A stretch of 64,000 bases of DNA. Origin: Eledone cirrhosa (Eukaryota). Positions 8,710 through 64,000 of the stretch are shown piece by piece. Location of the stretch: NCBI GenBank assembly GCA_964016885.1, contig OZ024740.1, forward strand, positions 257,052,001 through 257,116,000, in the 5' to 3' direction. A model generated the notes under the pieces. The model did not search any database. It saw only the letters and a list, made by a program, of their open reading frames with translations, and was not told the DNA's origin. The translations under genes were made by a program, and so were the position numbers. Within the stretch, counting starts at the first letter, position 1, and the number at the start of each line of letters is the position of its first letter.

Positions 8710-9125
8710 TAAATTTAGTCCTTCATCAATGCTCTTCCTACCTTCATTGGTATTTCATCGCTTTAAAGAACATATACCTCCGGTTGGTGCGAGCAACGGC
8801 TAAAGAAAGTCGTTGGGACACGTAAATAGGGGGAACGAGCGTGAGAGTAAACAATCAAAGATGGTAATGCAACGAAAAGTGAGGAAGAAGGAGTCAAGTC
8901 CCTGAAATCGATGAATATAAGTTCTGTGAAATCGTAGACGAGAGAGAATAAAGACCATCCCACCTGGTCAAAGTGTACGTGAGGAAAGCATCTCGCACAG
9001 GTCAAACGGGAGGAAGTAGGAGAGGGAGTAGCAGAGAGTGAGTGAGTGAAAGTGTGAGGAATAGGTTAACAGAGAGTGTGACTGTTAGAGGGGGTAAATG
9101 GAAGTGAGAGATACAGAGAAACAGA
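8706..9125 (-). mobile_element. Family D non-coding repeat carrying the permuted hammerhead (8716-8822)
   Basis: Reverse complement aligns with 30890-31308, 56385-56605 and 62515-62840. Confidence 0.8.
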
Positions 9126-10518: not shown

Positions 10519-10975
10519 TTATGTAATATTCTGCTTGTAGTGGGAAAAAAGGGTTTTAGTTCTGTGACGGCAGAATAATGTTCGTTCAATTCTGTTATTC
10601 AGCAGTTTCTTCTTGTGTGTGATTATGTAATAAATCTCAAGATTACACAATTTGCAGAAATTTTGGCTCCTGGAAAAGCTTTGGGTTTTAGCTAATTTTT
10701 CCCATTTTAGGGTAAACTTTTGATTGCTATCCCTGAGCGTCCAAGCTTTTTCTGCTAAAGTTGTTACATTTCTTTGGCTCTGGTGTTTTATTGAGTAAGA
10801 ATGCCTATACAATCGAGATTTAAACGATGTTGCCGTTGATCCCACGTAATACCACTCGTTGCCTCCGGATTTAATGGTACACTTATAAATAATATTTTTT
10901 TCCAGGCAGTTATTGCCGAGGGGGCAGTTGTCAGGATAGGTGCAGTTACAGTTGTGTACGTTGGGTTTTCTCTGA
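10519..10975 (-). pseudogene. PLE C-terminal Cys-rich linker + GIY-YIG endonuclease fragment
   Basis: CNCTYPDNCPLGNNCLEKNIIYKC...YYVGSTATSFKSRL...CKLCNLE...CRH. Confidence 0.88.
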
Positions 10976-11190
10976 TATGCTGATGAGAATAGGTACAAAT
11001 ATGCGATAATGAATGTGTCTAAAAACGTCCATAAGTATGTATATATATGTGAAAATGTATATAAATAAGTAAATATATATATATGTTTGATGTGTATAGT
11101 TAGATGTAAGTGTATTCATGTATTAAAGTGCTTATATATATATATATGTGTGTGTGTATATGTATATATGTGTATATATGTATATGTATG

Positions 11191-23265: not shown

Positions 23266-24115
23266 TTCTTGGAGTCTCAGTCATTTAACTGCAAAGTCTG
23301 TTGAAATGAACATCAAGCCGCTACCTGCGGCCTCAGATATTCAGGACGTATCCGAGGGTTCCTGCTGCTCTTTGCAAGCATACTTTTTGAAGTGTTCCAA
23401 AAAAGGGGCTGGACTAATATTCTTTAACAATCCTTGAAAACTCTTTGAGATAGTACCTAGTGCGCCTATGACAATCGGGACGACCTTGATTTCATGGCAT
23501 TTCCAAATCCTTTTTAACTCCCACTTTAAATCCTGGTATCGGTTAATTTTCTCCTTTTCTTACACTCTTGTGTCAAAGGAGCAGGCTATATCTACAATCA
23601 GGCACGTTCTTTTTTCCTTATCAAAAGTAGCAATCCCTCTGTAGCTGTTTTAAGGTCTTCTCTTTTTAATCAGCTCCATTTCTGTGGATCTCTGAATTCC
23701 GTTTTCTTAAAAAGGGTGCTATAACAGGCTTTTTCGTGAAAGATGCTCTTCTTCTTTGTTATTACTTCCTCCTTGAACATCCTCTGGTCTATTGTCTCCT
23801 TCAGTACAACTTTCAGCATCGACTCCTTACTCTCAGACACATATTTGTGCAGACTGCTCTTCTCCATCTGAACACAGTCCTCTACGCTGATAAGAACTCT
23901 TCCAAATTCAGATTTCTTTAAGTAGAGTCTATCAACACCAGTCATCTTATGGAAAATGCTGTAGGTAGTCATTAGCTTCCTAGTCTTTCTATCCATTCTT
24001 CTAGATCAGTAACATTCCATTTGAGAATTCCCACACTGTACCTAATAATAGACACATCTCAGGAATTTACTGCACTTATGATATTCCTACTATTTAGATG
24101 TGATTTTCACATTCT
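23266..24115 (-). mobile_element. R4/Dong-clade 3' fragment with restriction-like endonuclease region
   Basis: MDRKTRKLMT..VDRLYLK..GR.LIS and CLIVDIAC..EKINRYQDLKWELKRIW..VVPIVIGALG; 3' end abuts (TAA)n. Confidence 0.85.
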
Positions 24116-24439
24116 ACAGCATTAAACATGAACAATAAACAATTATAACACTACATCCAACACAGCACCAGCATCACAGAGAAAAACTACACAACATCCC
24201 AAAAAGTCACACCATCCACACACTTACAAATCACACGTATCTCACGGAAATCATGCACAATCCTAAAGAAGAATACCCCAAAGACATCGGAGGTTTCAGA
24301 CAAACACTTTTCTGGAGGATATATAAGACATCCTTCTGGAGAGGGCCACAGACAATCAGAAGGGCGGAAAAACCATCATTCCCCCACAAGAACTGAGGTT
24401 AGTGATCTTTCCAAGCTTTTGCCACTCTTTTTCAACGTG

Positions 24440-27400
24440 ACCTTACTCAGAAAAGGCAGCATAAATGCACGTGGCCTGGAGTCATTATGGAAGCAGGGTC
24501 ACTTGCTCAACGACCTCAGGTCAATGAACATAGATGTGGTGGCTATCAGGTACACTAGATAACTGCCTTCGCACCCATCTTCGGTGGTTACAATGAGAAC
24601 GCATCTCCAAGCCGGTCGGGATCGGGAAACGGAGTCGCTGTGTTGTTTCGGAGAGGCCTGGATCTTGTGATACGGACCATCTTCCGGGACCAAGAAGGTG
24701 AATCGGTGGTGCTGGACGTGATCAGCAGCGAATGCTATGCATTTAGGCTAGTGGCTGTTTATGCCTCGACAAGGGCAGGACGGCCTGATTTCTTCAGGAG
24801 ACAGGAGACCTTCCTAGGAATGTCCCTCTCTTTAATGTTAGTGGGCGATTGGAACAGCATCTTGGATGCACGCTGGGATTGTGTGGGATTAGCGGATAGG
24901 GGAGGAGGGTGTAAAAGCCTCGCAAACCTGATCAGACGTTTCCAGCTGTAAAACAGGTACCGACTGAATTTCCCGAATGTTCTAAGGAGGACATAGAGAA
25001 ACCGCACCGGCTCATCCAGATCGTATCTAGACAGGGTATTTTGTAAGGAAACAGATAAATAAAGCATAGGTTGTCCACAATTGAAGATAATCGACTACAC
25101 AGAAAACACATTCGTGATCTGTGTTGTTCACTTAGATAGGTTTAATAGAAAGGGACCTGGCAATTAAACGCGTCGATGACAACGCGCAAAGCTTGAAGAG
25201 ACCGGATTAGTCAGCTAGTTAAGCGGCCCTTAACGGAGGATTAACCAACAACAAATAGTTGTTCGCCCTGAAGTGGGCGATTAGAATAGAATCCATTAGG
25301 TTTAGTAAGCCGTTAGCAATAGAGAAAAATAGAGCAGAGAGAGAATTAGTTAGAAAACTAGATGCGGCGTTTATTAAAGGCATCGCGACCGTCTTGCTTG
25401 CGGCGAGATTGTCCCTCGACCAATTCTTCAACGAAAATACGAAGGCTGCATTGTCAGAGCAAGGGCGCGTGCTCTTTGATACGAGGGGACGAAAGCCATT
25501 CGATGTGTCTGGGTGGCGGAGGCGCGTCGTAACAACAAAGCAACGATCCGGTCTTTGGAGGACCACGACGGGTGTATGTTACTCGAACCCGGGAAAATGT
25601 GTGCCGCTTTTCAGCGGCACTTCGCTCAGCAGTTCGGGGGCAGTAGCGGTGTGTCGGATAGTAGGATGGAATTTAGCGCCTACCTTAATGGCTTGCCGCG
25701 GCTCTCGGCCACTGAGGTAGAGCGTTACAAAAAACCGATAACAGCCGCTGATGTACGGGAGGCAATGACTGACTCCATGATGGGTAAATCGCCTGGTTTG
25801 GATGGTCTGCCCTACGACCATTACGTACATATGCCAGACTTGTTCGGCGACCTCTTGGCGGACGTCTCCTTCCACTTCCTGCAGAACGGAAGAATTCTCA
25901 GCTTTATGAGCCGAGGAGCGGTGGCGCTGCTGAGAAAGGACCCGAACAAGTGGGGCAACATGCATAATCGCAGGCCCATAACTCTGCACCAATGATGTCT
26001 TCTCCCGTCCCCGTTGTACGTATTGACTTTCGAACCATTATTGCACAAACTGGAGACGTTGCGGTGCATCCTGCGTGTACTGAGATGCGGGAGAGCTATG
26101 TCATCATATACCGGGGACGTCACCGTAGTGGTGTCGAGCGCCAAACATATCGAAGCGATCGGCATTACTCTAAGACAGGGGTCCCCAACCACCGGCCCGC
26201 GAAGGGTTTCAATCTGGCCCGCGATGGCCTTTATCCTGCCCGCGAGTGTTCTAAAAATGGTACAGTTTGCAATAAATTCGCACCCGATATATCGGTATTG
26301 CCGAATAAAACAATGTTTAAATGTATTTTACTGCTTGGGATAGCTCTAAGTATCAATATTGAATTTTGTTTCAAATCTAACATAAGGGATAAATAAATGA
26401 TTACTTATTTGTATATAAGTAGTATTAATTGCGCATCCGGCCGGCGGAGCCACCGCTGCATGGCTATCCGGCCCGAGGACCAAAAAGGTTGGGGACTCCT
26501 GCTCTAAGAGAATACGACGCGGTGACAGGAGCAATTATTAACCAGGAAAATCGGTTGGCCTGCGTCTCGGGACCTAGAGAGGGATGTCCATGCCGTCCAA
26601 CAGCATTGTCGGGCGTTGGACGGACGGACCCGTAAAATTGCTAGGGGCTTGGTTCGGTTCGGAACTCCAGACGGATAAAAACTGGGACGAGGTGACGAGC
26701 AGGTGGCCTCTCCCACCCACAAATCGGCCGAGAGAAAGCTATCCCTGACAGATCGAGGGGAGGTGGTGAACGGATTTATCGCGTCCGTCATCTACCGCCT
26801 GACCGTCGTGCCTTGTTCTACGCCTCGACTGACTGCACTGGAGCATTTTCTCTGTCGCGTTTTGTGGAAAGGACGCGCTTCGATGGTCAGGTGGTTCATC
26901 TACTGTTAACACCCGCTACTTGGATTGCATGAGGGGCCTGATGATGTGCCGCCATGCATTCCATCTACAGCATCTCCATTTCTTCCACGACGGTGATCAA
27001 GTGTTGTCGCCGATTGCCAGACATGTTTTTCTCAGCTCGTCTCTTTGACGGAGCTGCAAGTACTGGATCAAGCGTAGACCGAAAGGAAGCGCTTGGAGAT
27101 TGGAATGTTTTCAGGAGCTCACAGCCTCGACCAGTCAGGTGATGCGATCGGTGGAAACTTCATCTTGGCGTTCTATAGAGGGTTAGTGGAGAGCAAGTGC
27201 GACGACGTCTTTGGGGAAGCTCTGAGTGTTAACGAAAACAAACTAGCTATTCTCTTCGGAAGAACTTTCATTCCAGAGCCAATGTAGAACTTCCAGAAGT
27301 CGCTGACATGGCAGTGTTACTGGGGAGCGTTGCTAGTTCGAGATAAACTTTACAGGTATGGAAGGGCCATCAACCGCGCTTGCCCGAGATATGCGTCGGG

Positions 27401-28045
27401 GGAAGAGACCGTCCTGCAAGCACTCGTCCAGTGTCTGAGCATCGCTGACTTGTGGGTTTATGTCGAACATCTGCTGTCGCGTGTAGGACGGATCCGGCTA
27501 TCAGCTGAGTCCATCGTGAAGATTGCCACGCTGTCCACATTTAACCAGGAGGAGCAGGGAGTTTTTGTCTGCCTGGTGGCCACGGTAAAAGAGGTCGTAT
27601 GCAGGATGCGTTTGAAAGTGTGGAAGATGAGCACTTTCTTTTTCGGTGACACCCTCATTAACTTTTCTATGTTTCACCTGAAAAGGGAAATCAGGGTGGA
27701 GAGAGAAGTGTTGCCTTCCAGACAGTTTGTTGAGAGGTGAGTGAGAGAGGCGAGAACGGCCCATGTGAATGTGCCTGTCCTGAGCTTGTGTCTGTAGTAT
27801 CTTAAGTGTAAAACTGGGCGAGGGCGCTTACCCTCATGGTCAAGGTTACCGGGGCGTTTTGGGGGATTTCTCCACGAGTGATTCTCGGAAGTCTCCCCAC
27901 TATTGTGGAATTTTTCCTGCTTGTTGTTTTGTTACATCATCTGCTTTTGTTTTTTACACGTAGAGATGCCCATTTTTATCGTCCTGTATTGTCCTGTGCT
28001 GTTCTTAATGTTATACTTTGTGTCAACCTTCGTGGTTAATAAAGC
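24440..28045 (+). mobile_element. L1/Tx1-like LINE ORF2 (APE + RT + Cys-His tail), degenerate, internal RT deletion near 25990
   Basis: INARGL, RLVAVYA, LVGDWNSILD, SYLDRVF, GKSPGLDGLPY, RPITL joined directly to LYVLTFEPLL, YTGDVT, CPRYASGEETV; AATAAA at about 28037. Confidence 0.88.
26176..26501. mobile_element. hAT (Charlie-type) MITE inserted in the LINE
   Basis: TIRs CAGGGGTCCCCAACC / GGTTGGGGACTCCTG; 8-bp TSD CTCTAAGA at 26168-26175 and 26502-26509; LINE sequence resumes after it. Confidence 0.93.
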
Positions 28046-28049
28046 CCGG

Positions 28050-28835
28050 TGCCTATGGACAACTTCCAGAAATCCTTGACTCGGCAGTGTTACCGGGTAG
28101 CGTTGCCGGTTAGAAATGATCTCTACAGGCACGAGAGTGCCGTCAGCCCAACCTGTGCGAGATGCGCCTAGGGCAACGAAACCGTTGTGCACGCACTCGT
28201 TCAGTGTCCGAGCATTGCTGACTTGTGGGGCTATGTCGAAAATTTGCTGTCACGTGTAGGACGGATCCGGTTATGGACTAAGTCTATTGTGCAGATAGCC
28301 CCTCCGTCCTCCTTTCAGGAGGAGGAAGGACAAGCAGTCTTCATCTATCTGACGGCCATGGCGAAAGATATTGTATGGTGGACAAGGTTGAAAAAATTGA
28401 AACGGGCATTTTCCTCTTCGGCGGATCACAGATCAACTTTTTCAAATTTCACTTTAAAAGGAAAAATCAGGGTGGAGAGACAAGTGCTGTCTTCTAGTAA
28501 GTTTGTTGAACGGTGGGTGAAAGCAGCGAATCTGGTCTGAGTGAACGGGCCCGTCCCGAGTATGCGCCTGTAGACTGATGGGTGTGAGAACTTAAGAGGG
28601 CGCTTGCCCTCGTGGTCAGGGTGGCCGTGGTCTTTTGTGGGGTTTTCACCACGTGTGACCCTCGTAGGTTTCCTCCTTTTTAGGGAATTTTTGTTGTTTG
28701 AATTCTTTTGATTTGTTTTTATACATTTCTATCTCATTTTTACACCACCACGACCCACTTTGTATCGTCCTGTACCATTCAGTACAGTCTGTAATATTTT
28801 TCGTCATGTTAGCCCTTGTGGCCGATAAAGAAACC
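28050..28835 (+). mobile_element. Second, diverged L1/Tx1-like 3' end in tandem
   Basis: Parallels 27280-28045 (HALVQCPSIADLW..SRVGRIRL..IRVERQVL..FVERW). Confidence 0.85.
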
Positions 28836-30471: not shown

Positions 30472-31417
<946 letters not shown>

Positions 31418-32531: not shown

Positions 32532-32567
32532 TCTTCTGATGAAGGACTAGCTTCCGAAACGTTAAGA
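32532..32567 (+). ncRNA. Minimal PLE-type hammerhead
   Basis: tctt-CTGATGA-A-GGA-ctagct-TCC-GAAA-CG-TT-aaga. Confidence 0.82.
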
Positions 32568-32780: not shown

Positions 32781-35757
32781 AGTAACAATAATAACATTGA
32801 AGACTAAAATCAAAAGAGGGCTTGATAAGGATAAATATATATCAAATATATAAGAACCGTTGAGCAAATGTTTATTAAAATAACATTAAAGTTTAAGCAA
32901 AGAATCGCTGCTTTCATCCTTAACAGGATCTTCTGAAACTAAAAAAAAAAACAATCTGTGAACGCTGATGTAAATATTTCGAAAAACGTTACAACCTAAG
33001 GAAGACAGGAAGACGATACTTTGATTCGTGGAAACGTTGCTTGGCAAAGAACGGAAAAAAATTAGGAGCGGTGAAAACAATTACAAGTAAAGACAAAACC
33101 ATGTTTATGGTATAACTGAAGTGGTAGACTAAAATTCTATTTAGGAAACCGAATGATTCTCGGCTTCAGAGTTAAGAATAATGTAAATAAATTACAGAGG
33201 TAAATGAAATCAACAAAAATTAAATATATACTTCCACGCTTCCATATACGTACATACACTTGCATACGCGAAAACACTCGCCATGGGTATGCAAAAGCAA
33301 GCACGTACACAAAAAAACACGCACGCACATACAGAACCCACGCAACGCCTGTTCCCGCACACATACGAACGTATATAAATATACACACATAAATACGTAT
33401 ATAACGCACGCACACACATACCTACATGTAAATACACATATGTTCGCTAAACGTATGTCAACTAAAACACGAAGTACACGTATACACACACCCTACATAC
33501 GTACGAACCCGCATACTCACACAGACGCAAAACTCACGTATACACATATGCACATGTACCAGTGTATATAATATAATATATACGCCTATAACATATACAA
33601 TCAAATATACGTACGAGAAAGTATACGTACCTTCGCAAAACATACAGGTAATATATACTTACCTATACAAATAAGTAATGGTATAAACATTACACATACT
33701 TAGCTACCACATCAAGACGTAAAATATCCGCGTATAGTTCGTACTATCCGTTAGGGTATAATGTGGGGCTGTAATACAGGAAAGTTTTGTGCAATTTATG
33801 TTTACAAGTCGAAATTGCCTTAGATTTTTTGTTTAAGATGTGGTCTTTGGCGAAGAGTATTTCCAGGGCTTCAGCGGCGCAGAGGTCACATGGTCTTTTA
33901 TTTCCGTTATACGATCTAGCTTCAGCTAGGATCTCCCACTGTAACTTATATTGGGTGTCGTTGTCTTTTAGATTCCAGATATAAGCTGAAAGTGACGTCA
34001 CATTCCTTCTTAAAGGGTTAAGAAAAGAATGGGTATGCATGTAAAGACGCTGCTTGAATCTATTGGCGGTTAACCCTATGTAGGCCCTACGGGACGTGAG
34101 TGTTTCAACTTTACATTTGTAGACAAAGTTACAAGAGAGGTATTTCACGGATAGGGGGCAGTCAACCCGATTCCTACAATTACAGTTAGTACTAGCTACT
34201 GGGTTGCACGTGTTCCTACGGCTAGGTAATTTAGCTACAGTTGAAGCTGTGATGTTATATGCAAGGTTAGGAGTCGTAGAGTAAGAAATGTTAATGGTAT
34301 TTCTATTAAACATTTTATTATGTTTATGTGCTGGGCGGAAATGCTTCATAATAAGGGAGAGATAGATCAGAGCTAATGGTGTGACCACCTCCATAATATA
34401 TGGTGAGTTATACCATATAATGCGTCGGGATCTCTTTTTCCTAGGTCTATTCTCATACTTTGTATATGCTACCTTATCGACAAATCCACTCCGAGCAAGA
34501 GTTTCATTGTAATACGTGGAATGGTCGGTGAAAACATTCTCGTTTGTAGATAGACGGGAAACCCTCAATGAAACGTTTCTTACCAGGTTCTTGGTTATGC
34601 TGGCAGGATGGGTAGAATGCTTACTTATGTAATTAGGTGTATAATTCGGCTTTCTATACGGGTAGTGCAAGCCATTCGACAAATTGAGGGTAACGCCGAG
34701 GTAACTAATGACCGAGAGGTTGGCCTTAACCTGTATGGAGGGGTTGAAGCCTTTAAAGAAGGCTGTATGTTCTTTTCTGAACCTGTCGCAAGCACGTGGG
34801 CTACACTTTGTCATGGTCAAAAGACCGGCATTACGGTACAAACCACCGCCCACGTTGGGGAATTCTTCCTTGATAGAGATAAGAAGGAAAAGGCCGACAA
34901 GATCAGTAACCACCGCAGAATTGATGGCGCCCATACTCACGTTGAATGGGGTACTATTAGATTTTTTAATCCAAATAGAGTCGACAAAATTAATCACCGA
35001 CTTACGGGCATTGAAAATGACATGAACTTCGAAATCCTTAACCACTGTGAGTGTTTTAGCGAAATTGATATCTCTGAGAAGAAGTATTAAAGTGATGGAG
35101 GAGTAGTAATTATTGATGTCGAATTGGATAAAACGGCAATGTTCCTTGTTGCATATGCCGTTGAACCAATCAATCACCGCGAAAGAATTGTTCCACAGTG
35201 CAAGAGGGGCCAAACTTCTAATTTCAGGTATAATTCTATCTAAAATCCTTTTACTAAGTCTACTTAAATCGGACTTCGTAGGGTTAATAAGCCGAATGGA
35301 GGGGTTGTTCGGGAGATTGGATTTCTGATCCTTCAGGATAAAGTGGGGGAGAAATAGGGTCCAGAGGTTCAGTCTTTTGTCTTTGCGCGTAATTGTTCTC
35401 ACCGATCCACATAATGACGTATTATCCTCGTTTTTTCCGTTCATTACCAGAGAACGTCTCCACGAACCAGCTAATAGAATATTATTCTACGATTTCATTT
35501 ATACCATAAACGTGGTTGTGTCTTTCCGTGTAATTGTTTTCACCATTCCAAATAATGACGTATTATCTTCGTTTGTTTCCGTTCTTTGCCAGGGAACGTT
35601 TCGACGAACCAAAGTATCGTCTTCGTGTCTTCCTTCGGTTGCAATGTTTTTCAAAATATTTACATCTGCGTTCAAAGATTGATTTTTTTTTAGTTTCAGA
35701 AGATCCTGTAAAGGGTGAAAGCAGCGATTTTTGCTTAAATTTTAATCTGTTATTTTA

Positions 35758-37247: not shown

Positions 37248-39075
37248 TAAGGTAATGAATTCTTTTACAATGGAATTAGCTCGAAGGAGGAAAATACCCC
37301 CTGAGCAGTGTATAAATTAATATGTATGTGATGAAACACAGATACCAACACATCTGTATATATATTGGCAATAGAGTTCGCCTTCGTTGATTTATTATTT
37401 TAAATCGATATGGACAAACTGTAGTATAATAATTAGTATACTTCAATCTGGCTAAATTTTTCTTTTGCAATATATATACAGATGTGTTGGTATCTGTGTT
37501 TCATCACATACATATTAATTTATACACTGCTCAGGGGGTATTTTCCTCCTTCGAGCTAATTCCATTGTAAAAGAATTCATTACCTTATTAATTTTAACTG
37601 CTCCTAGTTTGAGCTGCAAGCCGCCTCATATATACGACTGTTATTTCTAGCAGTACGGTTATGAGACTAGTTAGATACTGTAAAACCATGTGCGTCACGC
37701 AGTTTTTAAATTATTTAGAAGTGAAGCATATCAATTTGTCCCTGGATGTTTACTGAGGAGAGCAGGACATGATATTCCTACACTTATTTAACTCGAAACA
37801 TATTTGGATCTTAAAGTTTAAACTTATCTACGGAACAAGTTTGATTTTGAAATTTAAATGTGTCTAAACAACACAGCCTCTTGGCAATACAGTTCGCCTT
37901 CGTTGATTTATTATTTTAAATCGATATGGACAAACTGTAGTATAATAATTAGTATACTTCAATCTGGCTAAATTTTTCTTTTTCAATATATATACAGATG
38001 TGTTGGCATTTGTGTTTCATCACATACATATTAATTTATACACTGCTCAGGGGGTATTTTCCTCCTTCGAGCTAATTCCATTGTAAAAGAATTCATTACC
38101 TTATTAATTTTAACTGCTCCTAGTTTGAGCTGCAAGCCGCCTCATATATACGACTGTTATTTCTAGCAGTACGGTTATGAGACTAGTTAGATACTGTAAA
38201 ACCATGTGCGTCACGCAGTCTTTTAAATTATTTAGAAGTGAAGCATATCAATTTGTCCCTGGATGTTTACTGAGGAGAGCAGGACATGATATTCCTACAC
38301 TTATTTAACTCGAAACATATTTGGATCTTAAAGTTTAAACTTATCTACGGAACAAGTTTGATTTTGAAATTTAAATGTGTCTAAACAACACAGCCTCTTG
38401 GCAATACAGTTCGCCTTCGTTGATTTATTATTTTAAATCGATATGGACAAACTGTAGTATAATAATTAGTATACTTCAATCTGGCTAAATTTTTCTTTTG
38501 CAATATATATACAGATGTGTTGGTATCTGTGTTTCATCACATACATATTAATTTATACACTGCTCAGGGGGTATTTTCCTCCTTCGAGCTAATTCCATTG
38601 TAAAAGAATTCATTACCTTATTAATTTTAACTGCTCCTAGTTTAAGCTGCAAGCCGCCTCATATATACGACTGTTATTTCTAGCAGTACGGTTATGAGAC
38701 TAGTTAGATACTGTAAAACCATGTGCGTCACGCAGTCTTTTAAATTATTTAGAAGTGAAGCATATCAATTTGTCCCTGGATGTTTACTGAGGAGAGCAGG
38801 ACATGATATTCCTACACTTATTTAACTCGAAACATATTTGGATCTTAAAGTTTAAACTTATCTACGGAACAGGTTTGATTTTGAAATTTAAATGTGTCTA
38901 AACATCACAGCCTCTTGGCAATACAGTTCGCCTTCGTTGATTTATTATTTTAAATCGATATGGACAAACTGTAGTATAATAATTAGTATACTTCAATCTG
39001 GCTAAATTTTTCTTTTTCAATATATATACAGATGTGTTGGCATTTGTGTTTCATCACATACATATTAATTTATAT
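37241..39075 (+). mobile_element. 517-bp-unit tandem retrozyme-like array (about 3.3 units) with inverted 5' piece 37241-37366
   Basis: ggcaata(c/g)agttcg at 37367, 37883, 38400 and 38917; units nearly identical; one HHR per complete unit; (TA)n flanks. Confidence 0.9.
37748..37823 (+). ncRNA. Type I hammerhead (also 38265-38340 and 38782-38857)
   Basis: gttta-CTGAGGA-GAG...CTC-GAAA-C-(16-nt loop)-G-TT-taaac. Confidence 0.78.
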
Positions 39076-39249
39076 ATATATATATATAGTATTAAGGATA
39101 CTATTTATGGTTATGTATATACAAAAACCTTTAGTAGTTGTATATATTTTTACAAACCCTAAATAGTGATAGGTAGTAATATATTACTACCTTATTACCA
39201 GTAAGCTAAATAGCTCAATGTAATAACATCAGTTGTTTTACAGAGCAGT

Positions 39250-42292: not shown

Positions 42293-45070
42293 TTACAAAA
42301 GGAAAGATGGGGGTGTATGTGTCTCAGGTCTGTGAGCATCTGTGTGGGCCCGTTTAAGTCTATCAACCACAATGGTCTCTCGGGATCCCTTAATGTCTAC
42401 AGCGAAATGTTTATCAGAACGAGCCAACACACGGTAGGGTCCACAGTAGGGTTGTGTGAGAGGTGGTTTCACGGCATCGTTTCTCACAAACACATGGGTC
42501 CACGAGGCAATATCCCTCGGGACTGCAAATTTTACAGTTTGCTTCCTCGTATCCATCGGCGGCAGGTCCTGAAAATAAGAACGCAGACGGGTTACGTAGG
42601 AAAGCGGATCTTGTTCAGCAAGTTGTCGCTGGAAACGCTTCACCATTCCATTAGAGGCAGGATGATATGCAGTCGTTCGGATGCGTTTAGCGCCGATGAT
42701 TTTCGTTAATTTATGGAAGAGATTCGATTCAAACTGTCTTCCACGGTCCGTTGTAATCGTGGTTGGCACTCCAAAGCGGACAATCCATCCTGATACTAGT
42801 CGTTTCAGCAGTGATGTATTTCAAGGGGATAGCTTCACGCCATCGCGAAAAACGATAAATAACAGTCAATAGATAAGTATGACCACCACTGACTGGCCAA
42901 GGTCTCACGATGTCCACATGAATGTGCCAGAAACGGGCGTCCGAGCGGAGCCTTAACGTGTTTATGGATTTTCGATTTCTGGCAAGCGATGCAGGAACGG
43001 CACCAAGCAGTAATATCGCGCCTCATATTTGGCCAGAAGAATCTGTCTGTTATGAGCTTTACTGTGGCAAAAGATCCTAGGTGGGAAATGCTGTGTAAAG
43101 CAAGAAACACAATACGACGATGGCTTAGCGGGACGAATGGTCTCGGTGAATCCACAGAAACGTCGCAGAGAATCTGTCCGTCTGCGGTGGGCAATGGCAG
43201 GTATTTCAAATTACTCGTCGCAAATTCGGCTGATGTAATATCCAACGTTTCCAGTGCAGGTTGGTCTGCTGCCAAGTGATTTAAATCGATGTCGTGGGAT
43301 GACGCAATTGAATTGATCGGCAATCGAGACAGGGCGTCAGCCGCTGTGTTCAATGAGCCTGGAATGTGTTGGATGTCATTTGTGAATTGCGAGATAAAGT
43401 CGAGATGCCTTGTTTCTCTGGGCGAGTACTTGTCGAACTTTGCCATAAAAACGAAGGTCAAAGGTTTATGGTCAGTATAGATTGTAAAACACCTTCCATC
43501 GATAATATGTGAAAAATGTTTCACGGAAAGGTAGATGGCTAACAGCTCCCAGCCAAAAGTGCTGTAGCAATTTTCTGCAGGCTTCAACTTCCTGGAAAAA
43601 AATTCCAATGGTTGTTGGTGATCGTCACTACTCTGTTGTAAGACTGCACCCACTGCAGTATCCGACGCATCAACACAAAGCGAAAGCATTGGACACTGGG
43701 TGGACCAGCAAAGATGCACTAGACAATGCTGAATTTGCTTTTTGAAAATCCTCGAGCTGAGTCTGAGTCAAAGAGAGGTCCTTATTTTTCTTGTGGCAAT
43801 TTTTCAGAATCTGAGTAAGAGAGAAGAGTAGATTAGCACAAAGCGGAACAAAACGTCTATAGAAATGTATCAGTCCTAGGAATTGTCGCAACTGACGAAG
43901 TGAGGTCGGCGGAGGCAAATCCTCTATATCCTGAACTCATTGAGGGAGGGGTCGAATACCCTTGGAGTCAATGATATGACCTAAAAAATTCAGCGATTCC
44001 GCACCGAAAACACATTTTGTGATATTTATTTGAAGACTGTAATCCTTGAGTCGACAAAACAAAAGATTCAAATGACGTATGTGTTCTCTGGAGGAACTAG
44101 CAATAAGCAGATCGTCAATGTAAGTGTAGACGAAGTCTAAAACACGAGTGACCTCATCCATAAACCGTTGAAAGGTGCTAGCAGCATTCCTACGTCCGAA
44201 AGGCATGGTAAGAAATTCGAATGATCCAAATTGAGGCGTAATGGCCGTTTTCAGAATATCTTCTTTCTTGACAGGAATCTGATGATAGGCTCGCACCAAA
44301 TCGAGCTTCGAGAATATTTTACATCCCTGCAATGACGATGCAAAATCTTGCAGGTGTTGAATAGGATATCTATACGGGACAGTTATAGCTTTTAACTTCC
44401 TATAATCCCCAGTGGGTCTCCAGTCGCCAGAAGTCTTGGGTATCATGTGCAACGGAGAAGCCCAAGGGCTCGTAGAAGTGCGAATTATGCCTAGCTGCAG
44501 CATGTGGTCAAACTCGGACCGTGCTGCCTTCAAATTGTCCGCAGGGAAGCGACGAGGACGTAAGAACACTGGGGCGCCAGTTGTAGAGATAAAATGCTCC
44601 GTTGTGTGAGTTGGTTCGACAACTCGAAAATTTCCCTGAGTAAGCTGTGGGAAAGAATTCAACAATGCATGATAGGGATTCCCAGCATTAGCGATGAAAA
44701 AGGTCGGGCTAACTGTTGGAAAATTAGCTTTCTAGCCACGAAGAGAAAAACCAGTAATGTCATCAGTAGATGACATTACTGGTTTTTCTCTGACGTCCAC
44801 CGTCAATGCAAACTGGTGTAGAAAATCCGCTCCCAAGATCGGATATGGTAGGTCAGCACTCCATTTGAATTCTCGTCGAAGATTTCTGAATTGCAGAGGA
44901 AGCGAGATTTGTCCAAAAGTCTGTATCAGCGAATGATTGACAGCTTGTAGATTCATTGATGACCCAGGAGGAGTTATTGTCATACAATTGACAGGCCAAA
45001 TACTGCACGAAGCTCCTGAGTATACGAGGAAGGCTCTTCCAGACAGGAGGTCCTCTATGAAGAAATGGCG
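42293..45070 (-). pseudogene. Gypsy pol (protease, RT, RNase H, integrase), frameshifted
   Basis: FLVYSGASCS / PILGADFL (PR); [21 protein letters not shown] (RT); DASDTAVGAVL, YTDHKPL (RH); H2C2 and [10 protein letters not shown] (IN). Confidence 0.93.
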
Positions 45071-45189
45071 GTTCTGTTGTGTCTCGCAGAGTTCATTTGC
45101 CGCCTTTAGTGACTCTGATCTACATTTCCCGAAGCTGAATATTTACATGGAGGCCGGCAATTGTTTGCCTTATCCGTGAAGGTGGCATG

Positions 45190-45885
45190 ATACCAGCAAA
45201 ATAATGGATTGCTGGCGGGCGAATTAGTATGCTGACGTGGAGTCGCGAAAGAACGCGAACGACTCCTAGGCCGCCAGGAATACGGGCTATTTATTCTCCC
45301 TGCATAATCGAGCGACTTGCTACGTCAAAGTGTCAATAGCCTTCAACATGGCATCCTTGAGTGTCGAGACGGGCAGGTTCAAATGAGAGGAAGCAACATG
45401 CGAGTCCGAGGCGGTAGCCTTTTTAAAAAATTCCACGATTCGATCTGCGGAGGCAACAATTTGCTCCAAAGAGCTGGTGTCCACTATATTTGCCAAAATA
45501 ATTTGAACGTTGTTTGGCAGGCGAGAGAAAAATATTTTTTTAATAAAGGAATTATCATGTTCAGGCGATTCACTGAGGTCCCTAATGTGGCGCAAAAATT
45601 CGGACGGCGACCTATCGCCTAGACACTCATCCTCCAACAATGAACGAAATCTGCTCTCAGCAGAACGACTGTCCCTTCGAAGAATTTCTTCCCGCAACGA
45701 ATCATAAGAAATACTAGCCGACGGGTTCGTAATCAAATCTTTCACTGTTACAGTGAGTGAAGAAGGAATACCACTTATCAAAAAGTTGAGCTTTTCTCGG
45801 TTTTTATTTCGTTGGCAGCAAAATAAGCGTCCAGCTGCACAAACCAGAGTTTAGTATCACCTGAGAATGCAGGCAAACCAGGACC
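45190..45885 (-). pseudogene. Gypsy gag remnant
   Basis: LPAFSGDTKLWFVQLDAYF, LGDRSPSEFLRHIRDL..FFSRLP..ADRIVE, CWYH knuckle remnant near 45190. Confidence 0.85.
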
Positions 45886-48230: not shown

Positions 48231-51200
48231 ACCAAAGGAATTGTGGTAAGGAACCAGATGGTAAGTAACAACCACAATGGTAGAAATAACAGTAACAACA
48301 ACAATAACGCTGAAGAAAACAACAACATACATCTAGCAATCACAGCAACAATGCATCTAGCAATCATAACAACAATACATCTAACAATCACAGCAACAAT
48401 ACATCTAGCAATCATAACAATAATAATAATACTAATGATAGGAACAACAACAACCACCATAATAACAATAATAGCAACACACACAACTATGACGATAGAT
48501 ATAATGACAACCCCTTAGAGAAACCATTCTTCAACCCAGCTGACAAAACATATAAGATGGGTAATATTTATCCTACGAGGTTACCCTTTAATAAAAGAGT
48601 TTGCATACCACAACAAATAGATGACGAGACAGAGGCACAGTTCACCATAGCTAGAAATAAGATTAGACAAATAGTAGACCGGTACACTAAGAGACAGAGC
48701 AGACCAGAGGTCCAACAACTTGGGAGGAAACCTGTAGAAGGCTTGGTTAGCATCAAGCAGTGCACAAGGGATGGTGAGGTAGTATGTCTAACCCACGGAT
48801 AAGTCTAGTAGGATGTCAATAGACAGCATACCGAACTACATCAAGGCTATGCAACCCCACATCCCCAACACGAGCGAAATTGCACAGCAAATACATGACG
48901 GGAAAGAGAAAATCCTCAACGCTCACATGATGATGTGGACCGACATCCTAAAGCCAAGCAGACGCACTGCCAACAACTTCCAGGCGTCTAACAATGTATG
49001 GGCTCAGCAAAGACCACAAGACAGTCGACGACCCGACAACAGGACCACGAACAAGACCCGTATGCGGAACAAATATAGCTAGCAACTACAGGATCTCCTA
49101 CTTACTCTCAATGGTTATATGCCCCACAATCAAGATGTCCCCAGATGTATGTGACAGTACAGAGGACCTCCTCAGCAGAATCAGTGAGTGCAACAAAATC
49201 AGGAACCTATCCAACTGCATAATAGGCAGCATGGATGTGGTATCACTGTACCCATCCATTAACATGGATTTTGCTGTGGAAAAATGTGTGGAGATGATCA
49301 TTGAGAGTGAGGTGGAGTTCTGCGACGTCGACACAGACGAACTGGGTCTCCTACTTAGACTTACCTACGACACTGACTACCTAGACAGCCATGACCTTAG
49401 ACGTTTCAGCCCCAGTAGACCTATAAGAGGTAGACCCCCTACAATAACCTCAATGGCTAAAAAGACTCCCATGGGAAGGTGGATTGGGTGGACCAAAGCT
49501 ATACGGACCCCCCAAAACAATGATCAGGTAAGAAAAATGGTCCCACATGCAATAGGGGCTAGTATCAAAACTAACTTAAGGGCCACATATTCACGTTCAA
49601 CGAGAAGATCTACACCCAAAATGAGGGAGCAGGCATTGGCGTCAGCATAGCTGGTGACGTTGCCAACCTTTTTATGGTATGGTGGGAAAGGAGACTTAAA
49701 GATCTCCTTAATGAGAGCCCCCATAGACCTCATCATGTACTCTCGTTACGTAGACGATATCAATATAGTTATAAGAATATCCCCACAAGAGAGCACTAAC
49801 AAGTTTGATTTAGAACGTAGCACAATGGAAAGCATCCAGCAGATAGCTAATTCCATACACCAGAGTATAACTGTAACTATCGACTACCCTCCCAAACACC
49901 CTAACAATAGACTACGTGTATTAGACACGGAACTCTGGATTAACACTATAGACGAGAGAGCCCAAATTCTCCACTCACACTATGCTAAACCCATGGCCTC
50001 CAAATACCAGATACTCAAAACTCAGCAATGTCCAGTAATGCTAAGTTTAATATTCTGATCGCCGACTTGGTACGAGTGATGAAGAACGTGTCTCGTATGT
50101 GCGACCCAACAGAAATGGAAAGACACATCCAACACTTCATCAACCGCATGCAGTTCTCTGGCTACAACCATAGAGACGGAATCAGAGTATACAAAGGAGC
50201 CACGGAGAAGTATAAGAGCCTCATAGAACTGGACATTTGCCCATTATACAGGAGCAAATCATGGAATAGCTTAGATAGGGCTAGACATAAGATAGGGAAA
50301 GCCACCTCATGGTACGACAACCAGAGATCCCAGAGTGTCATGTTTGTGGACGCTACCCCTTGAGGGAAATTAGCTAACCAGTGTAAAAAGGCCCGGAGAA
50401 AGACCCACTTAAAGATTAAGGTGGTAAAAAAGCCAGGAACCACCATAAAATCCCTTATCAGCAAAACCTACCCTTTTAAGAAAACCCACTGTACTAATAG
50501 GAAATGTATTATATGTAAGGTAAACCCCGGATAAACTGTAAAACTAGAAACGTAGTCTATAGCATAAGATGTACAGAGGGTACTTGCAGAAATATGACAA
50601 CACCATACATAGGCGAGACAGCTCGTAGCATAGGTGAAAGGATAGACCAACACTGGGGGGACTAAAAGGACGAAAAAACGGTTCAGTACTATACAAACAT
50701 TCCAGACAACAACACTACGGTAACATAGACAACATAGAAATTACAATAATATCTAAACATAGAAATGACCCAGCAAATAGGCAAATCAGAGAGGCCAGTG
50801 AAATAGAACTTAAAGGCCAAGGCTAAACAGAAAAAAATGAATGGAATAACAACAACACCCAAACAAACAACACTGACATAAGAGAAGTATAAATAAATAA
50901 ATAAATAGATAAATAAATAAATACATACACAAGCACAATATAAACAAACACATATAAACACACACTTGTAAAGATAGAATACATTAACCAATACAGTCAC
51001 CCAATCACGAACACACATCAAACAAAACACTATACACACACGCAAACGCATGCGCAAAGAAGACAAAAAAAATAAACAAATAAATAAGTATATAAATAGA
51101 CTAAATAAAGATGACGTAGAAAATACAATGCAACGGGAGGAAACAATAGCACCACTGACGATGTTGCAGAAGTGCAACGAAAAACTTTGATAAACTATAT

Positions 51201-56384: not shown

Positions 56385-56605
56385 CTCTCTTTCCGTTGCA
56401 TTACCTCTATGTTTGTTTACATGTCTCGCTCGCTTCTCCCTATTTTACGTGTCCCAATAACTTTCTTTAGTTATTGCTCGCACCAACCAGAGGTATAAGA
56501 TCTTTAAAGCGAAGAAATACCAATGAAGGTTGGAAGATCACTGCTGAAGGACTAATTTTATTCATATGTAACCCTTGTGCAATCACGCAGCACGCCATTT
56601 TTCAT
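56385..56605 (+). mobile_element. Family D fragment with permuted HHR (56449-56552)
   Basis: Aligns to 31150-31308 with compensatory changes. Confidence 0.8.
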
Positions 56606-62397: not shown

Positions 62398-62505
62398 AAT
62401 AATTGTTTCTACTTTAGGCACAAGGCCAGCAATTACCCAGTACATTACTGGTATTTTATTTTATCGACCCCGTAAGGATGAAAGGCAAAGTTAACCTCGG
62501 CGGGA
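62398..62505 (-). mobile_element. CORE-type SINE 3' half
   Basis: Nearly identical to 16788-16890. Confidence 0.82.
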
Positions 62506-62554
62506 TAATAATAATGGAGCTGCGGCGCTGCAAATGGGTTACATATGAAAAAGT

Positions 62555-62660
62555 GTGTCCTCATCAGTGGCCTTCCAACCGTCGTAGGCATTTCGTCGCA
62601 TTAAAGGCCATATACCTCAGGTTTGTGCGAGCAACGGCTAAAAAAAGTCGTTGGGACACG
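62555..62660 (-). ncRNA. Non-circularly permuted hammerhead-like RNA, intact core (family D, 62515-62840)
   Basis: GGTA-TA|TGGCCTT ... C-GAAA-TGCC ... AAGGCCA-CTGATGA-G; all core nucleotides present but strands in the order S1-S3-S2. Confidence 0.75.
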
Positions 62661-62856
62661 TAAATAAAGGGGACGCTAGGGTAAACAAACAAAATGGTTT
62701 AAGCAGCAGAAAGTGATGAAGAAGAAAGAAACAAGTCCCAGATTTCTATGAATATAAATTCGGTGGAATCGTGAACGAGAGAATAAAGACCATCAAACCT
62801 GGTTGAAATGTGAGCAAGGAAGGAATTTCGCACAGGTCTAATATATATGTGTGTGT

Positions 62857-62947
<91 letters not shown>

Positions 62948-63298
62948 GCGAGAGAGAGGGAGACTGGGGTTGATAAAACGGGAGTGAGAAAGAGATATGG
63001 AGGATGAATCGAGCCCAGTAGTCGACTGATTTTTTGTATTGACTTCGAATGGATGAAACGTAGAGGTGATTTTGGCGGGATTTGAACTCCGAGTGTAAAG
63101 AGCTGGAACAAATACTGCAAAGCATGGAGACAATAAACGAACGGATAAACGGAAACAAGGGAAACAATACAGATTTCCCAATCAGTTTCACACATTTCTG
63201 GACAGCATCGCTTTTATCGTGATCGAAAGCATGTCAAACAACCATGGAAACACACAGACAAATATTTAACAATTCATTTAAATAAAGCGCACTTAATA

Positions 63299-63470
63299 TA
63301 TATAGTATAGATAATATAAGTTATATAAACTGTATATAGTATAGATAATATAAGTTATATAAACTGTATATAGTATAGATAATATAAGTTATATAAACTG
63401 TATATAGTATAGATAATATAAGTTATATAAACTGTATATAGTATAGATAATATAAGTTATATAAACTGTA
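63299..63470. repeat. 34-bp minisatellite, 5 copies
   Basis: (tatatagtatagataatataagttatataaactg)x5. Confidence 0.95.
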
Positions 63471-64000
63471 TGATACACTGCACAGCATTTAGGGAAAATG
63501 CCATCAACTACAGATTTGGGTTGACCAAACTCCTGAGGGAAATTGGGGAGACGGAAAATATTTCGATGGTTATTACCTGTAATTCAAAGGGTGAGACTTC
63601 TCTCACTCACCGACATGCTGAATCTTATAGAGAGTTACATTCAGGATGTCCCTGCGGAATGCTTAGACACTTACACGTCAATTTCACAAGAACTTTCATC
63701 GAACAGCTGGAGTTCCGTTCTGTGATAAACTTTTCCACTCTTCAGTGGCCTACTACTCTCCTTATGTTCTTTTGTCTGTCTATCTCTCTCTTTCTCTCAA
63801 CCCCCCCTCTCTCTCTATATATATATATGTGTGTGTGTGTGTATACATATGTATATATGCATATATTTATTATACATACTAGCAGAAAAACCACCCTTCG
63901 GCTGGTTTTCTGCTAGCATGTGTAGTGTGTATATTGATATTATACGCAAGTATATATGCATGTAGATATGATACATCAAATTAAAATCGTAATTGACAAT

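Follow-up and report, generated by a model that had tools for sequence, protein, structure and literature searches.

The stretch of DNA considered here (the window) comprises 64,000 nucleotides of the 3.0-Gb, (TA)n-rich assembly of an animal, Eledone cirrhosa. Five copies of one motif lie within this window (Table 1), all of them relatives of a single repeat. An intact core and an intact C helix occur together only in the copy at 62.6 kb, which also carries a private A·G mismatch in its NC helix; among the five there are two copies with a damaged C or NC helix and three with a mutated core. As read along 62556-62657 (minus), the 62.6-kb copy begins with GUCC, a 7-bp hairpin, UCGC, A, a 6-nt strand, U-G-A, GGUA-UA and the 5' strand of stem I, and then continues with UAAU, GCGA, C, GAAA, UGCC, UAC, GA, C, GGUUGG, the 3' strand of stem I, CUGAUGA and finally GGAC. 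The hammerhead core, i.e., CUGANGA, GAAA and UH, is thus present in the order S-G-C, and cleavage is predicted to fall between 62611 and 62610 (minus).

Beyond stem III the strands have the makings of a kink-turn (K-turn), that is, a C helix, a 3-nt bulge, the pairs G1b·A1n and A2b·G2n, and an NC helix beyond those G·A pairs. The initial annotation had described two such strands, each with its GA dinucleotide, and this is indeed how they read both at 62575-62626 (minus) and in the copy at 8.75 kb; its matching of them to the K-turn consensus likewise holds, the element being a standard K-turn with conservation that follows the published rules. Also as had been claimed, GA is found on both strands in five of the five copies, and the probability that the window's composition alone would place the two dinucleotides in this register is 0.0036. 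The bulge that had been described as varying, by contrast, takes just two forms within the window, AAU in four copies and UAC in one. As the copies are related and display those two bulges only, the five by themselves were no evidence of selection.

Table 1. Features of the window discussed in the text, with positions counted from the first nucleotide of the window
Feature	Position	Strand	Remarks
5'-truncated copy of ~625-nt unit, lineage A1	62505..62841	-	blastn against the L020 tandem unit, 95.7% and 97.5% identity
Helix IIa 5' strand GUCC, pairing with GGAC after CUGAUGA	62654..62657	-	exit helix of the stem II four-way junction
Hairpin X, 7 bp, stem II four-way junction	62632..62653	-	blind RNAalifold; 4/7 pairs two-sided
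Helix IIb 5' strand UCGC, most of stem II	62627..62630	-	UCGC/GCGA, UUGC/GCAA, ACGC/GCGU
K-turn NC helix 5' strand	62620..62625	-	6/6 pairs two-sided; 92.6% paired; blind RNAalifold
K-turn non-bulged 3n(U)-2n(G)-1n(A)	62617..62619	-	1n A 221/227; 2n G 211/227, U 12/227
Stem III 5' strand/K-turn C helix GGUA, U16.1, A17	62611..62616	-	hammerhead block S
Stem I 5' strand	62604..62610	-	6/7 pairs two-sided; tip pair often open
UAA(N) linker, stem I to stem II	62600..62603	-	UAA in 183-184/184
Helix IIb 3' strand GCGA, position 11.1, catalytic GAAA (block G)	62591..62599	-	G12-A15.1: 0 internal changes
Stem III 3' strand/C helix UGCC, bulge UAC, G1b-A2b, 3b=C	62581..62590	-	copy counts (n=227) in text
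K-turn NC helix 3' strand	62575..62580	-	adjoins stem I, 0-nt linker
Stem I 3' strand and catalytic CUGAUGA (block C)	62561..62574	-	
Position 10.1/helix IIa 3' strand	62556..62560	-	10.1-11.1 paired in 72% of cells
62.6-kb K-turn non-bulged strand, C-C-U-G-A-G-G-U-A	62613-62621	-	
62.6-kb K-turn bulged strand, U-G-C-C-UAC-G-A-C-G-G	62579-62590	-	
Sister copy, lineage A2	8718..8822	-	3b·3n = A·G; C3 -> U
Sister copy	31192..31296	+	core intact; C helix broken (UAUA in place of URCC)
Sister copy	30694..30776	+	NC 5' strand deleted; core mutated
Sister copy	56448..56552	+	A6 -> C; 3b·3n = A·A
Second hammerhead-like family	7796(-), 8416(+), 40713(-), 41139(+), 46771(+)		five copies
Minimal type-I-like hammerhead motifs	32536(+), 55981(-)		extra A after CUGANGA
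PLE-like RT and GIY-YIG-type ORF remnants	33744-35486(-), 10519-11115(-), 48952-50363(+)		
Perfect 999-nt inverted repeat	9205-10203/10974-11972		flanks one PLE-like remnant
Broken LTR-retroelement-like pol and LINE-like fragments	~42300-45850(-), ~24100-28500(+)		RVT_1 match 43940-44731
517-nt tandem repeat (3-4 copies, 99%) and 34-nt AT-rich minisatellite	37365-39214 and 63265-63505		

Other elements of the window include a second repeat family, flanked by TA tracts, that carries a classical-order, minimal hammerhead-like motif (CUGACGA, a short hairpin, GAAA). Two further minimal motifs are type-I-like. One of these, at 32536, agrees with the permuted ribozyme of lineage A2 in block C and in the bases that follow, which hints at a possible origin from a hammerhead of the Penelope-like element (PLE) type. 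Open reading frames that we take to be PLE-like, on the basis of GIY-YIG/CCHH-type motifs, yielded no match either to Pfam or to PDB sequences. Broken remains of LTR-like and LINE-like elements and two kinds of tandem repeat are present as well. No Rfam hammerhead was matched over 62500-62845 at E values of up to 10, and among the best 150 of 207 Rfam matches to the window, which are microsatellite noise, there was neither a hammerhead nor a K-turn-bearing family.

Genome-wide, the motif is hosted by a non-coding repeat. Two non-overlapping patterns yielded 12,017 plus 962 matches, versus 0 and 2 in controls, and the repeat is present in at least ~13,000 copies. Its unit is 470-679 nt long as measured over 33 tandem units, with one hammerhead sequence per unit and with a longest ATG-initiated ORF of 48-137 aa in the nine of those 33 units that were checked. 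Units form tandem arrays of up to nine, and are found also as inverted, 5'-truncated partners, with (TA)n as flanks. The nine-unit array (L292, G000:C1:43917000-43925500) has a spacing of ~740 nt, C·C at 3b·3n and CAG as its bulge. At least five diverged lineages have kept the K-turn. Among 19 random 10-kb stretches, nhmmer detected one copy only, i.e., the window's density of copies is atypical. Contigs from three sequencing runs of unrecorded kind, all on one sample, contain the repeat too, which speaks to its presence rather than to its expression. A very young subfamily (L247-L276, e.g., G000:C1:91792569-91794735) consists of near-identical copies with 533-nt tandem spacing, and in the unit of locus L005 a stretch of ~130 nt is present twice in diverged form (at ~245-390 and again at ~377-515 of the unit), with 515-nt units carrying one copy fewer.

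The ends of these copies speak to how the repeat may be propagated. In an end mapping of lineage A whose anchor spans the predicted cleavage site, and to which copies ending exactly at that site therefore are invisible, 120 of 149 copies enter (TA)n either 61-70 or 100-121 nt beyond the site; the remainder are mostly internal tandem units, and 5' ends are scattered. As lineage-A copies span the cleavage site, the template would have been a religated circle or instead an uncleaved multimer. PLE-like ORFs occur within the window, and also lie close to certain copies, in either orientation, and tblastn over the retrieved loci, with L038, L048 and L183 also read individually, found no autonomous PLE that is continuous with the unit.

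Conservation of the K-turn can be assessed with patterns that are agnostic as to GA. Of 7,342 such matches, 7,161 carry GA on the bulged strand (97.5%; control 165), as do, over diverged lineages, 5,509 of 5,792 (95.1%; control 16). On the non-bulged strand, GA is seen in 97 of the first 100 listed among the 12,017 matches. In lineages C/D, as counted by eye in the first 100 listed among the 962, 1n is A in 98, and 2n is G in 65, U in 32 and A in 3. Position counts were made on 227 of 244 core-anchored copies, with truncated and chance rows dropped, a set that is not an unbiased sample since it was gathered in part by similarity or with GA-containing patterns: G1b is found in 224 and A2b in 225 (A1n, 221), -1b is C in 218, -1n is G in 224, L2 is a purine in 224, and 13 different bulges each are seen at least twice.

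A tree points in the same direction. It was built from 167 unique sequences, out of 197 of 214 anchored rows, with the tested columns included in the alignment and with internal change counted on clades of at least three leaves. Positions 1b, 2b, 1n and -1n display zero internal-branch changes, as too do the invariant core bases and the UAA linker, and elsewhere such changes number six at L1, three at L3, five at 3b, six at 3n, two at L2 and one at 2n. U at 2n has a second origin in lineage E, and A2b·G2n is standard in most lineages, with a non-standard, Kt-23-like pair in two. In the available portions of PMC5061560 and PMC2790904, 2b·2n is the K-turn pair that is most often substituted, U being common at 2n in Kt-23. 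As judged from sequence, the conservation pattern is that of published K-turns, 2n=U is a known, tolerated variant, and the K-turn sequence is real and under selection at the level of lineages. GA loss genome-wide had been offered as what would speak against a K-turn; retention holds at 1b, 2b and 1n, and fails solely at the tolerant 2n.

Pairing was considered in a structure alignment of 72 of 193 own-genome rows, spanning lineages, with truncated and near-duplicate copies omitted. A pseudoknotted model of 34 pairs, which derives from the same sequences and so has an advantage over slid controls, has 91.0% of its cells paired versus 79.3% with shuffling (0 of 500 shuffles as high) and 30-46% when slid, and a covariation score over the 72 copies of 0.39 versus 0.19 shuffled and at most 0.115 slid. 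The two measures that are least inflated by relatedness are weaker, with 17 of 500 shuffles being as high for pairs changed on both sides and 266 of 500 for further pair types, the latter a null result for these 72 copies. RNAalifold, run blind, predicts the NC helix as well as hairpin X. Five different NC helices occur among copies, and six two-sided NC changes each map to a single internal branch of the tree. Stem III is 95.8% paired, with two-sided change in two of five pairs, and helix IIb 93%, with such change in two of four. Helix IIa (GUCC/GGAC, UUCC/GGAA, AUCC/GGAU) has the weakest support among the helices, with 84% of cells paired and one of four pairs two-sided. H17 is A or C in 184 copies and never G or U.

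Spacing within the motif, though close to constant, is not rigid. There are 824 matches at +1 nt (control 9), mostly from the young subfamily, which carries an extra bulged U in its NC helix and makes up the majority of the 100 listed among those 824, and 771 at -1 to -4 nt, chance matches included (control 117). Thermodynamic folding provides a less favorable picture of the fold. Nested folding gives the NC helix a probability of at most 0.1 in 28 of 33 natural units folded as circles, and the minimum-free-energy structure of the 62.6-kb region places the K-turn strand inside a different hairpin, a long one (z -2.4), these being programs that cannot score pseudoknots or K-turns. It may be that the active fold is short-lived or forms during transcription, or that pseudoknot energy escapes these programs. 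At 62555-62660 (minus), the lineage-A1 sequence also allows the 3' strand of hairpin X to pair with the K-turn/NC 3' strand instead, and the resulting long hairpin is, on such modelling, a possible inactive conformer of the circle.

As to hammerhead type, stems I and III covary and an interaction helix that adjoins stem I is present, as expected for type SGC. A continuous stem II, i.e., the strand before GAAA pairing with the strand after CUGANGA, is missing: next to the core, where stem II is weak, only 10.1-11.1 are able to pair, and the rest of the GAAA-side strand pairs instead with an upstream strand, giving helix IIb. Because continuous stem II is missing, the RNA may be viewed as a variant that works like SGC rather than as a plain member. 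It is not of type I, the type of non-LTR retrozymes, the block order being SGC.

Our main reading, to which we would assign a probability of about two in three, is that the conserved K-turn sequence acts as a structural hinge within a type-SGC hammerhead, closing a triangle made up of stem III, the 6-bp NC helix and stem I, with self-cleavage predicted to rely upon metal ions and the RNA's own tertiary contacts, and upon no obligatory protein. Underlying it are the block order, the invariant core, conservation of the K-turn type, and covariation of the NC helix, stems I and III, helix IIb and hairpin X (IIa more weakly). The RNA would be a circular permutant of published type SGC, with the free ends of the latter joined by the N-G-A strand, and with the chain opening instead within stem II, through a four-way junction made up of IIa, X and IIb plus 10.1-11.1. 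A kink of ~50 degrees would then bring the interaction helix back to the tip of stem I. Cleavage of tandem transcripts would release unit-length RNA that is then ligated to a circle, and a Penelope-like RT/GIY-YIG enzyme would copy this circle into (TA)n tracts, with priming at CAUA-like sites found 60-120 nt beyond the cleavage site.

Simple arithmetic bears on that triangle. Given a helix rise of 2.8 Å per bp, and treating helices as axes only, an NC arm of 9 bp that is set on a C arm of 5 bp ends 19.4 Å, or 6.9 bp, from the core at 50 degrees, versus 34-39 Å at 120-180 degrees. A gap of 6.9 bp matches the 6-7 bp of stem I, and it is suggestive that, in this toy model, the triangle would close only near the K-turn angle, which is 50 degrees in the available portions of PMC5061560. 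The initial annotation had proposed that extended stem III runs with no linker into the tip of stem I, and this has stood up, with 0 nt between the NC helix and the 3' strand of stem I, full covariation, and toy closure near the K-turn angle. It had proposed also that the K-turn makes the permuted topology feasible. That part is retained for this RNA, in which both strands are continuous from stem III into the interaction helix such that a kink, and hence the K-turn, would be required, but not for SGC in general, with its free ends and protein-free cleavage.

Whether a protein participates is the alternative most closely tied to the K-turn itself. It is unlikely, on our weighing, that the K-turn, though real, needs or is gated by a protein of the L7Ae family (15.5K/Snu13) in at least some lineages, with that protein controlling cleavage or circularisation. 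Such control would fit with retention of G1b and of a purine at L2 (224 of 227 copies each), both being points of L7Ae contact, and with an active fold that nested folding disfavours and that a chaperone could help. Lineages B and D, moreover, combine U·U at 3b·3n with U at L3, in resemblance to K-turns of box C/D, which fail to fold with ions alone. 15.5K prefers U at L3, whereas in amplified lineages any of the four nucleotides (U, C, A or G) is found there. All 16 variants of Kt-7 at 3b·3n fold upon L7Ae binding, according to the portions of PMC5061560 available, in which it is stated as well that K-turns fold in Mg2+ when 3n is G or 3b is C, and fail to do so when 3b·3n is Watson-Crick. 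Among 204 standard copies, 136 belong to the ion-folding 3b·3n class, including C·U in the 62.6-kb copy and A·G in the 8.7-kb copy; three are Watson-Crick, and 65 (48 with U·U, 15 with A·A and 2 with G·A) are covered by no ion-folding rule. That distribution is to be set against the 97% of U4 K-turns that are non-folding (same portions). Published contacts of L7Ae are with G1b, G2n (through N33) and L2, and G2n has been lost in two amplified lineages, i.e., to the U of those 32 lineage C/D matches in the first 100 listed, and in lineage E. Seven of the 12 copies with U at 2n carry C·G at 3b·3n, a combination that fits neither ion nor protein folding and, by analogy, points to tertiary stabilisation, just as tertiary context can fold impaired K-turns in, e.g., the SAM-I riboswitch (PMC5061560 and PMC2790904, portions available). 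Published SGC ribozymes, too, need no protein as described in the available parts of PMC10085705. Protein-dependent cleavage, which the initial annotation had raised, thus is not favoured, given ion-folding 3b·3n pairs in two thirds of the standard copies, avoidance of Watson-Crick pairs, and loss of G2n from two lineages. We would put forward, as a doubtful but pointed extension, that a K-turn-locked, further circularly permuted SGC hammerhead might have its cleavage or circularisation switched on by 15.5K/Snu13 in U·U lineages, with lineages tuned to either ion or protein folding.

Two other explanations differ as to what the conserved elements are doing. Quite improbable is that these helices do form but that the active species is a dimer with swapped domains, or two units of a tandem, the loop of one copy being paired to the stem I/CUGAUGA tail of another and K-turns setting the geometry of the dimer. 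Covariation is blind to pairing in cis versus in trans, arrays run to nine units, and PLE hammerheads reportedly cleave as dimers, a report ascribed to Lunse et al. 2017. Furthermore, the two helix ends lie far apart in the classical crystal structure, as Eckert et al. note in the portions of PMC10085705 available. Arithmetic does, though, let a monomer close at the angle of a K-turn, the alignment shows no evident palindromic stem, and units are ~500-680 nt apart. More improbable still, indeed very much so, is that no folded K-turn serves catalysis, GA/GA and the 3-nt bulge forming a flexible internal loop instead, or being kept for some other purpose such as recognition by a mobilising RT. 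Its helices rarely form in nested folding, and a 3-nt UAA linker is equally invariant such that other, unexplained constraints do exist. The flexible loop must contend, however, with a point-by-point K-turn match (G1b, A2b, A1n, C-G at -1b,-1n, a purine at L2, a tolerant 2n and a non-Watson-Crick 3b·3n) and with covariation of both flanking helices. The UAA linker just mentioned (62600-62603, minus), which in every lineage varies no more than the catalytic core does and is similar to that of the published SGC variant, is probably a tertiary contact.

Candidates for relatives elsewhere were considered as well. The full pattern was matched 0 times in viral contigs, 13 times in metagenomes and four times in prokaryotic genomes, and these 17 metagenome and prokaryote matches are taken to be chance, none forming the NC helix plus stem I plus IIb (best: NC 6/6, I 3/6, IIb 2/4). 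A snoRNA origin, suggested by the resemblance of lineage D to boxes D'/C', was rejected, other lineages being without boxes and no Rfam snoRNA matching over the motif.

In literature searched, i.e., outside of most subscription journals, Dfam/Repbase and bioRxiv supplements, no natural hammerhead with a K-turn is reported. Within the same limits as to repeat databases and subscription journals, no SGC hammerhead is reported from an animal genome, with type SGC itself appearing only in Eckert et al. Published work that combines kink-turns, hammerheads and L7Ae concerns, by title and start of abstract, engineered switches, structure methods, reviews and other RNAs. Both components thus are known, and it is their combination, topology and genomic setting that appear to be new. 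If our main reading holds, then a K-turn joining both strands, kept across at least five diverged lineages, would suggest how far ends come close. A ribozyme closed by a K-turn would be a compact, rigid construct for structure work, and the natural series of K-turns (A·G, C·U, U·G, U·U, A·A, 2n=U) within one catalytic scaffold would allow ion versus protein versus tertiary folding to be read as cleavage rate. The repeat reveals, too, a large class of retrozyme-like elements in animals to which Rfam and motif searches for types I/II/III are blind. Should switching by 15.5K/Snu13 in U·U lineages be true, then this would be a natural, host-protein-gated, self-cleaving ribozyme.

The closest known ribozymes are those of type SGC (HRIMA-1 and the SGC variant; Eckert et al. 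2023, PMC10085705, in the parts available), which come from metatranscriptome contigs, none being from a known organism's genome, and which cleave protein-free in vitro at 0.007-0.19 per min. Their alignments run from stem III', UH, stem I', a short linker, stem II, GAAA and stem III through 0-44 nt to an interaction helix, stem I, CUGAUGA, stem II', one or a few nt and interaction helix'. The RNA described here shares with them its S-G-C block order, a short linker between stems I and II, and a full hammerhead core. As in HRIMA-1, a stem II strand is followed by one nt, mostly a purine, and then by the interaction helix, with 0 nt on the other strand to stem I; the 6-bp NC helix, that is, has the connectivity of the published stem I-II interaction helix. 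In published SGC, however, stem II is a continuous 5-6 bp, whereas here it is split by a four-way junction with an additional hairpin, and published 5' and 3' ends are free at stem III and at the interaction helix, whereas here these are joined through the K-turn. Eckert et al. flagged it as a puzzle that stem III and the interaction helix are sometimes joined directly at their distal ends, even though these lie far apart in the classical structure. In the two published SGC alignments there is no K-turn motif at the free ends, and the word "kink" occurs 0 times in the available text and supplement of PMC10085705. Previously seen only on metatranscriptome contigs, the type here has at least ~13,000 copies as part of an animal retroelement.

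As a K-turn, the element is like HmKt-7 and the SAM-I riboswitch type, with C-G at -1b,-1n, a 3-nt bulge, a purine at L2, G1b·A1n, A2b·G2n and a mostly non-Watson-Crick 3b·3n, and, in its natural U at 2n, like the non-standard Kt-23. Unlike known K-turns, it is built on stem III of a predicted self-cleaving ribozyme, with both arms tethered. As a repeat, it resembles the animal non-LTR retrozymes, the organisation of which is given by Cervera and de la Pena 2020 (PMC7229834) and Li et al. (bioRxiv 10.64898/2026.07.22.740005), the available main texts of which mention neither cephalopods nor a kink. Like these it has non-coding tandem units with one hammerhead each, GC below about 46%, co-occurring Penelope-like elements and, by analogy, a likely circular RNA intermediate. 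Described non-LTR retrozymes differ in bearing type I (circularly permuted) hammerheads in units of 150-450 bp, versus the non-circularly permuted type SGC in units of 470-680 nt here (~740 in one array). The tandem and inverted, 5'-truncated copies with their (TA)n ends fit, lastly, with the microsatellite-biased insertion of PLE type that is described in published work.
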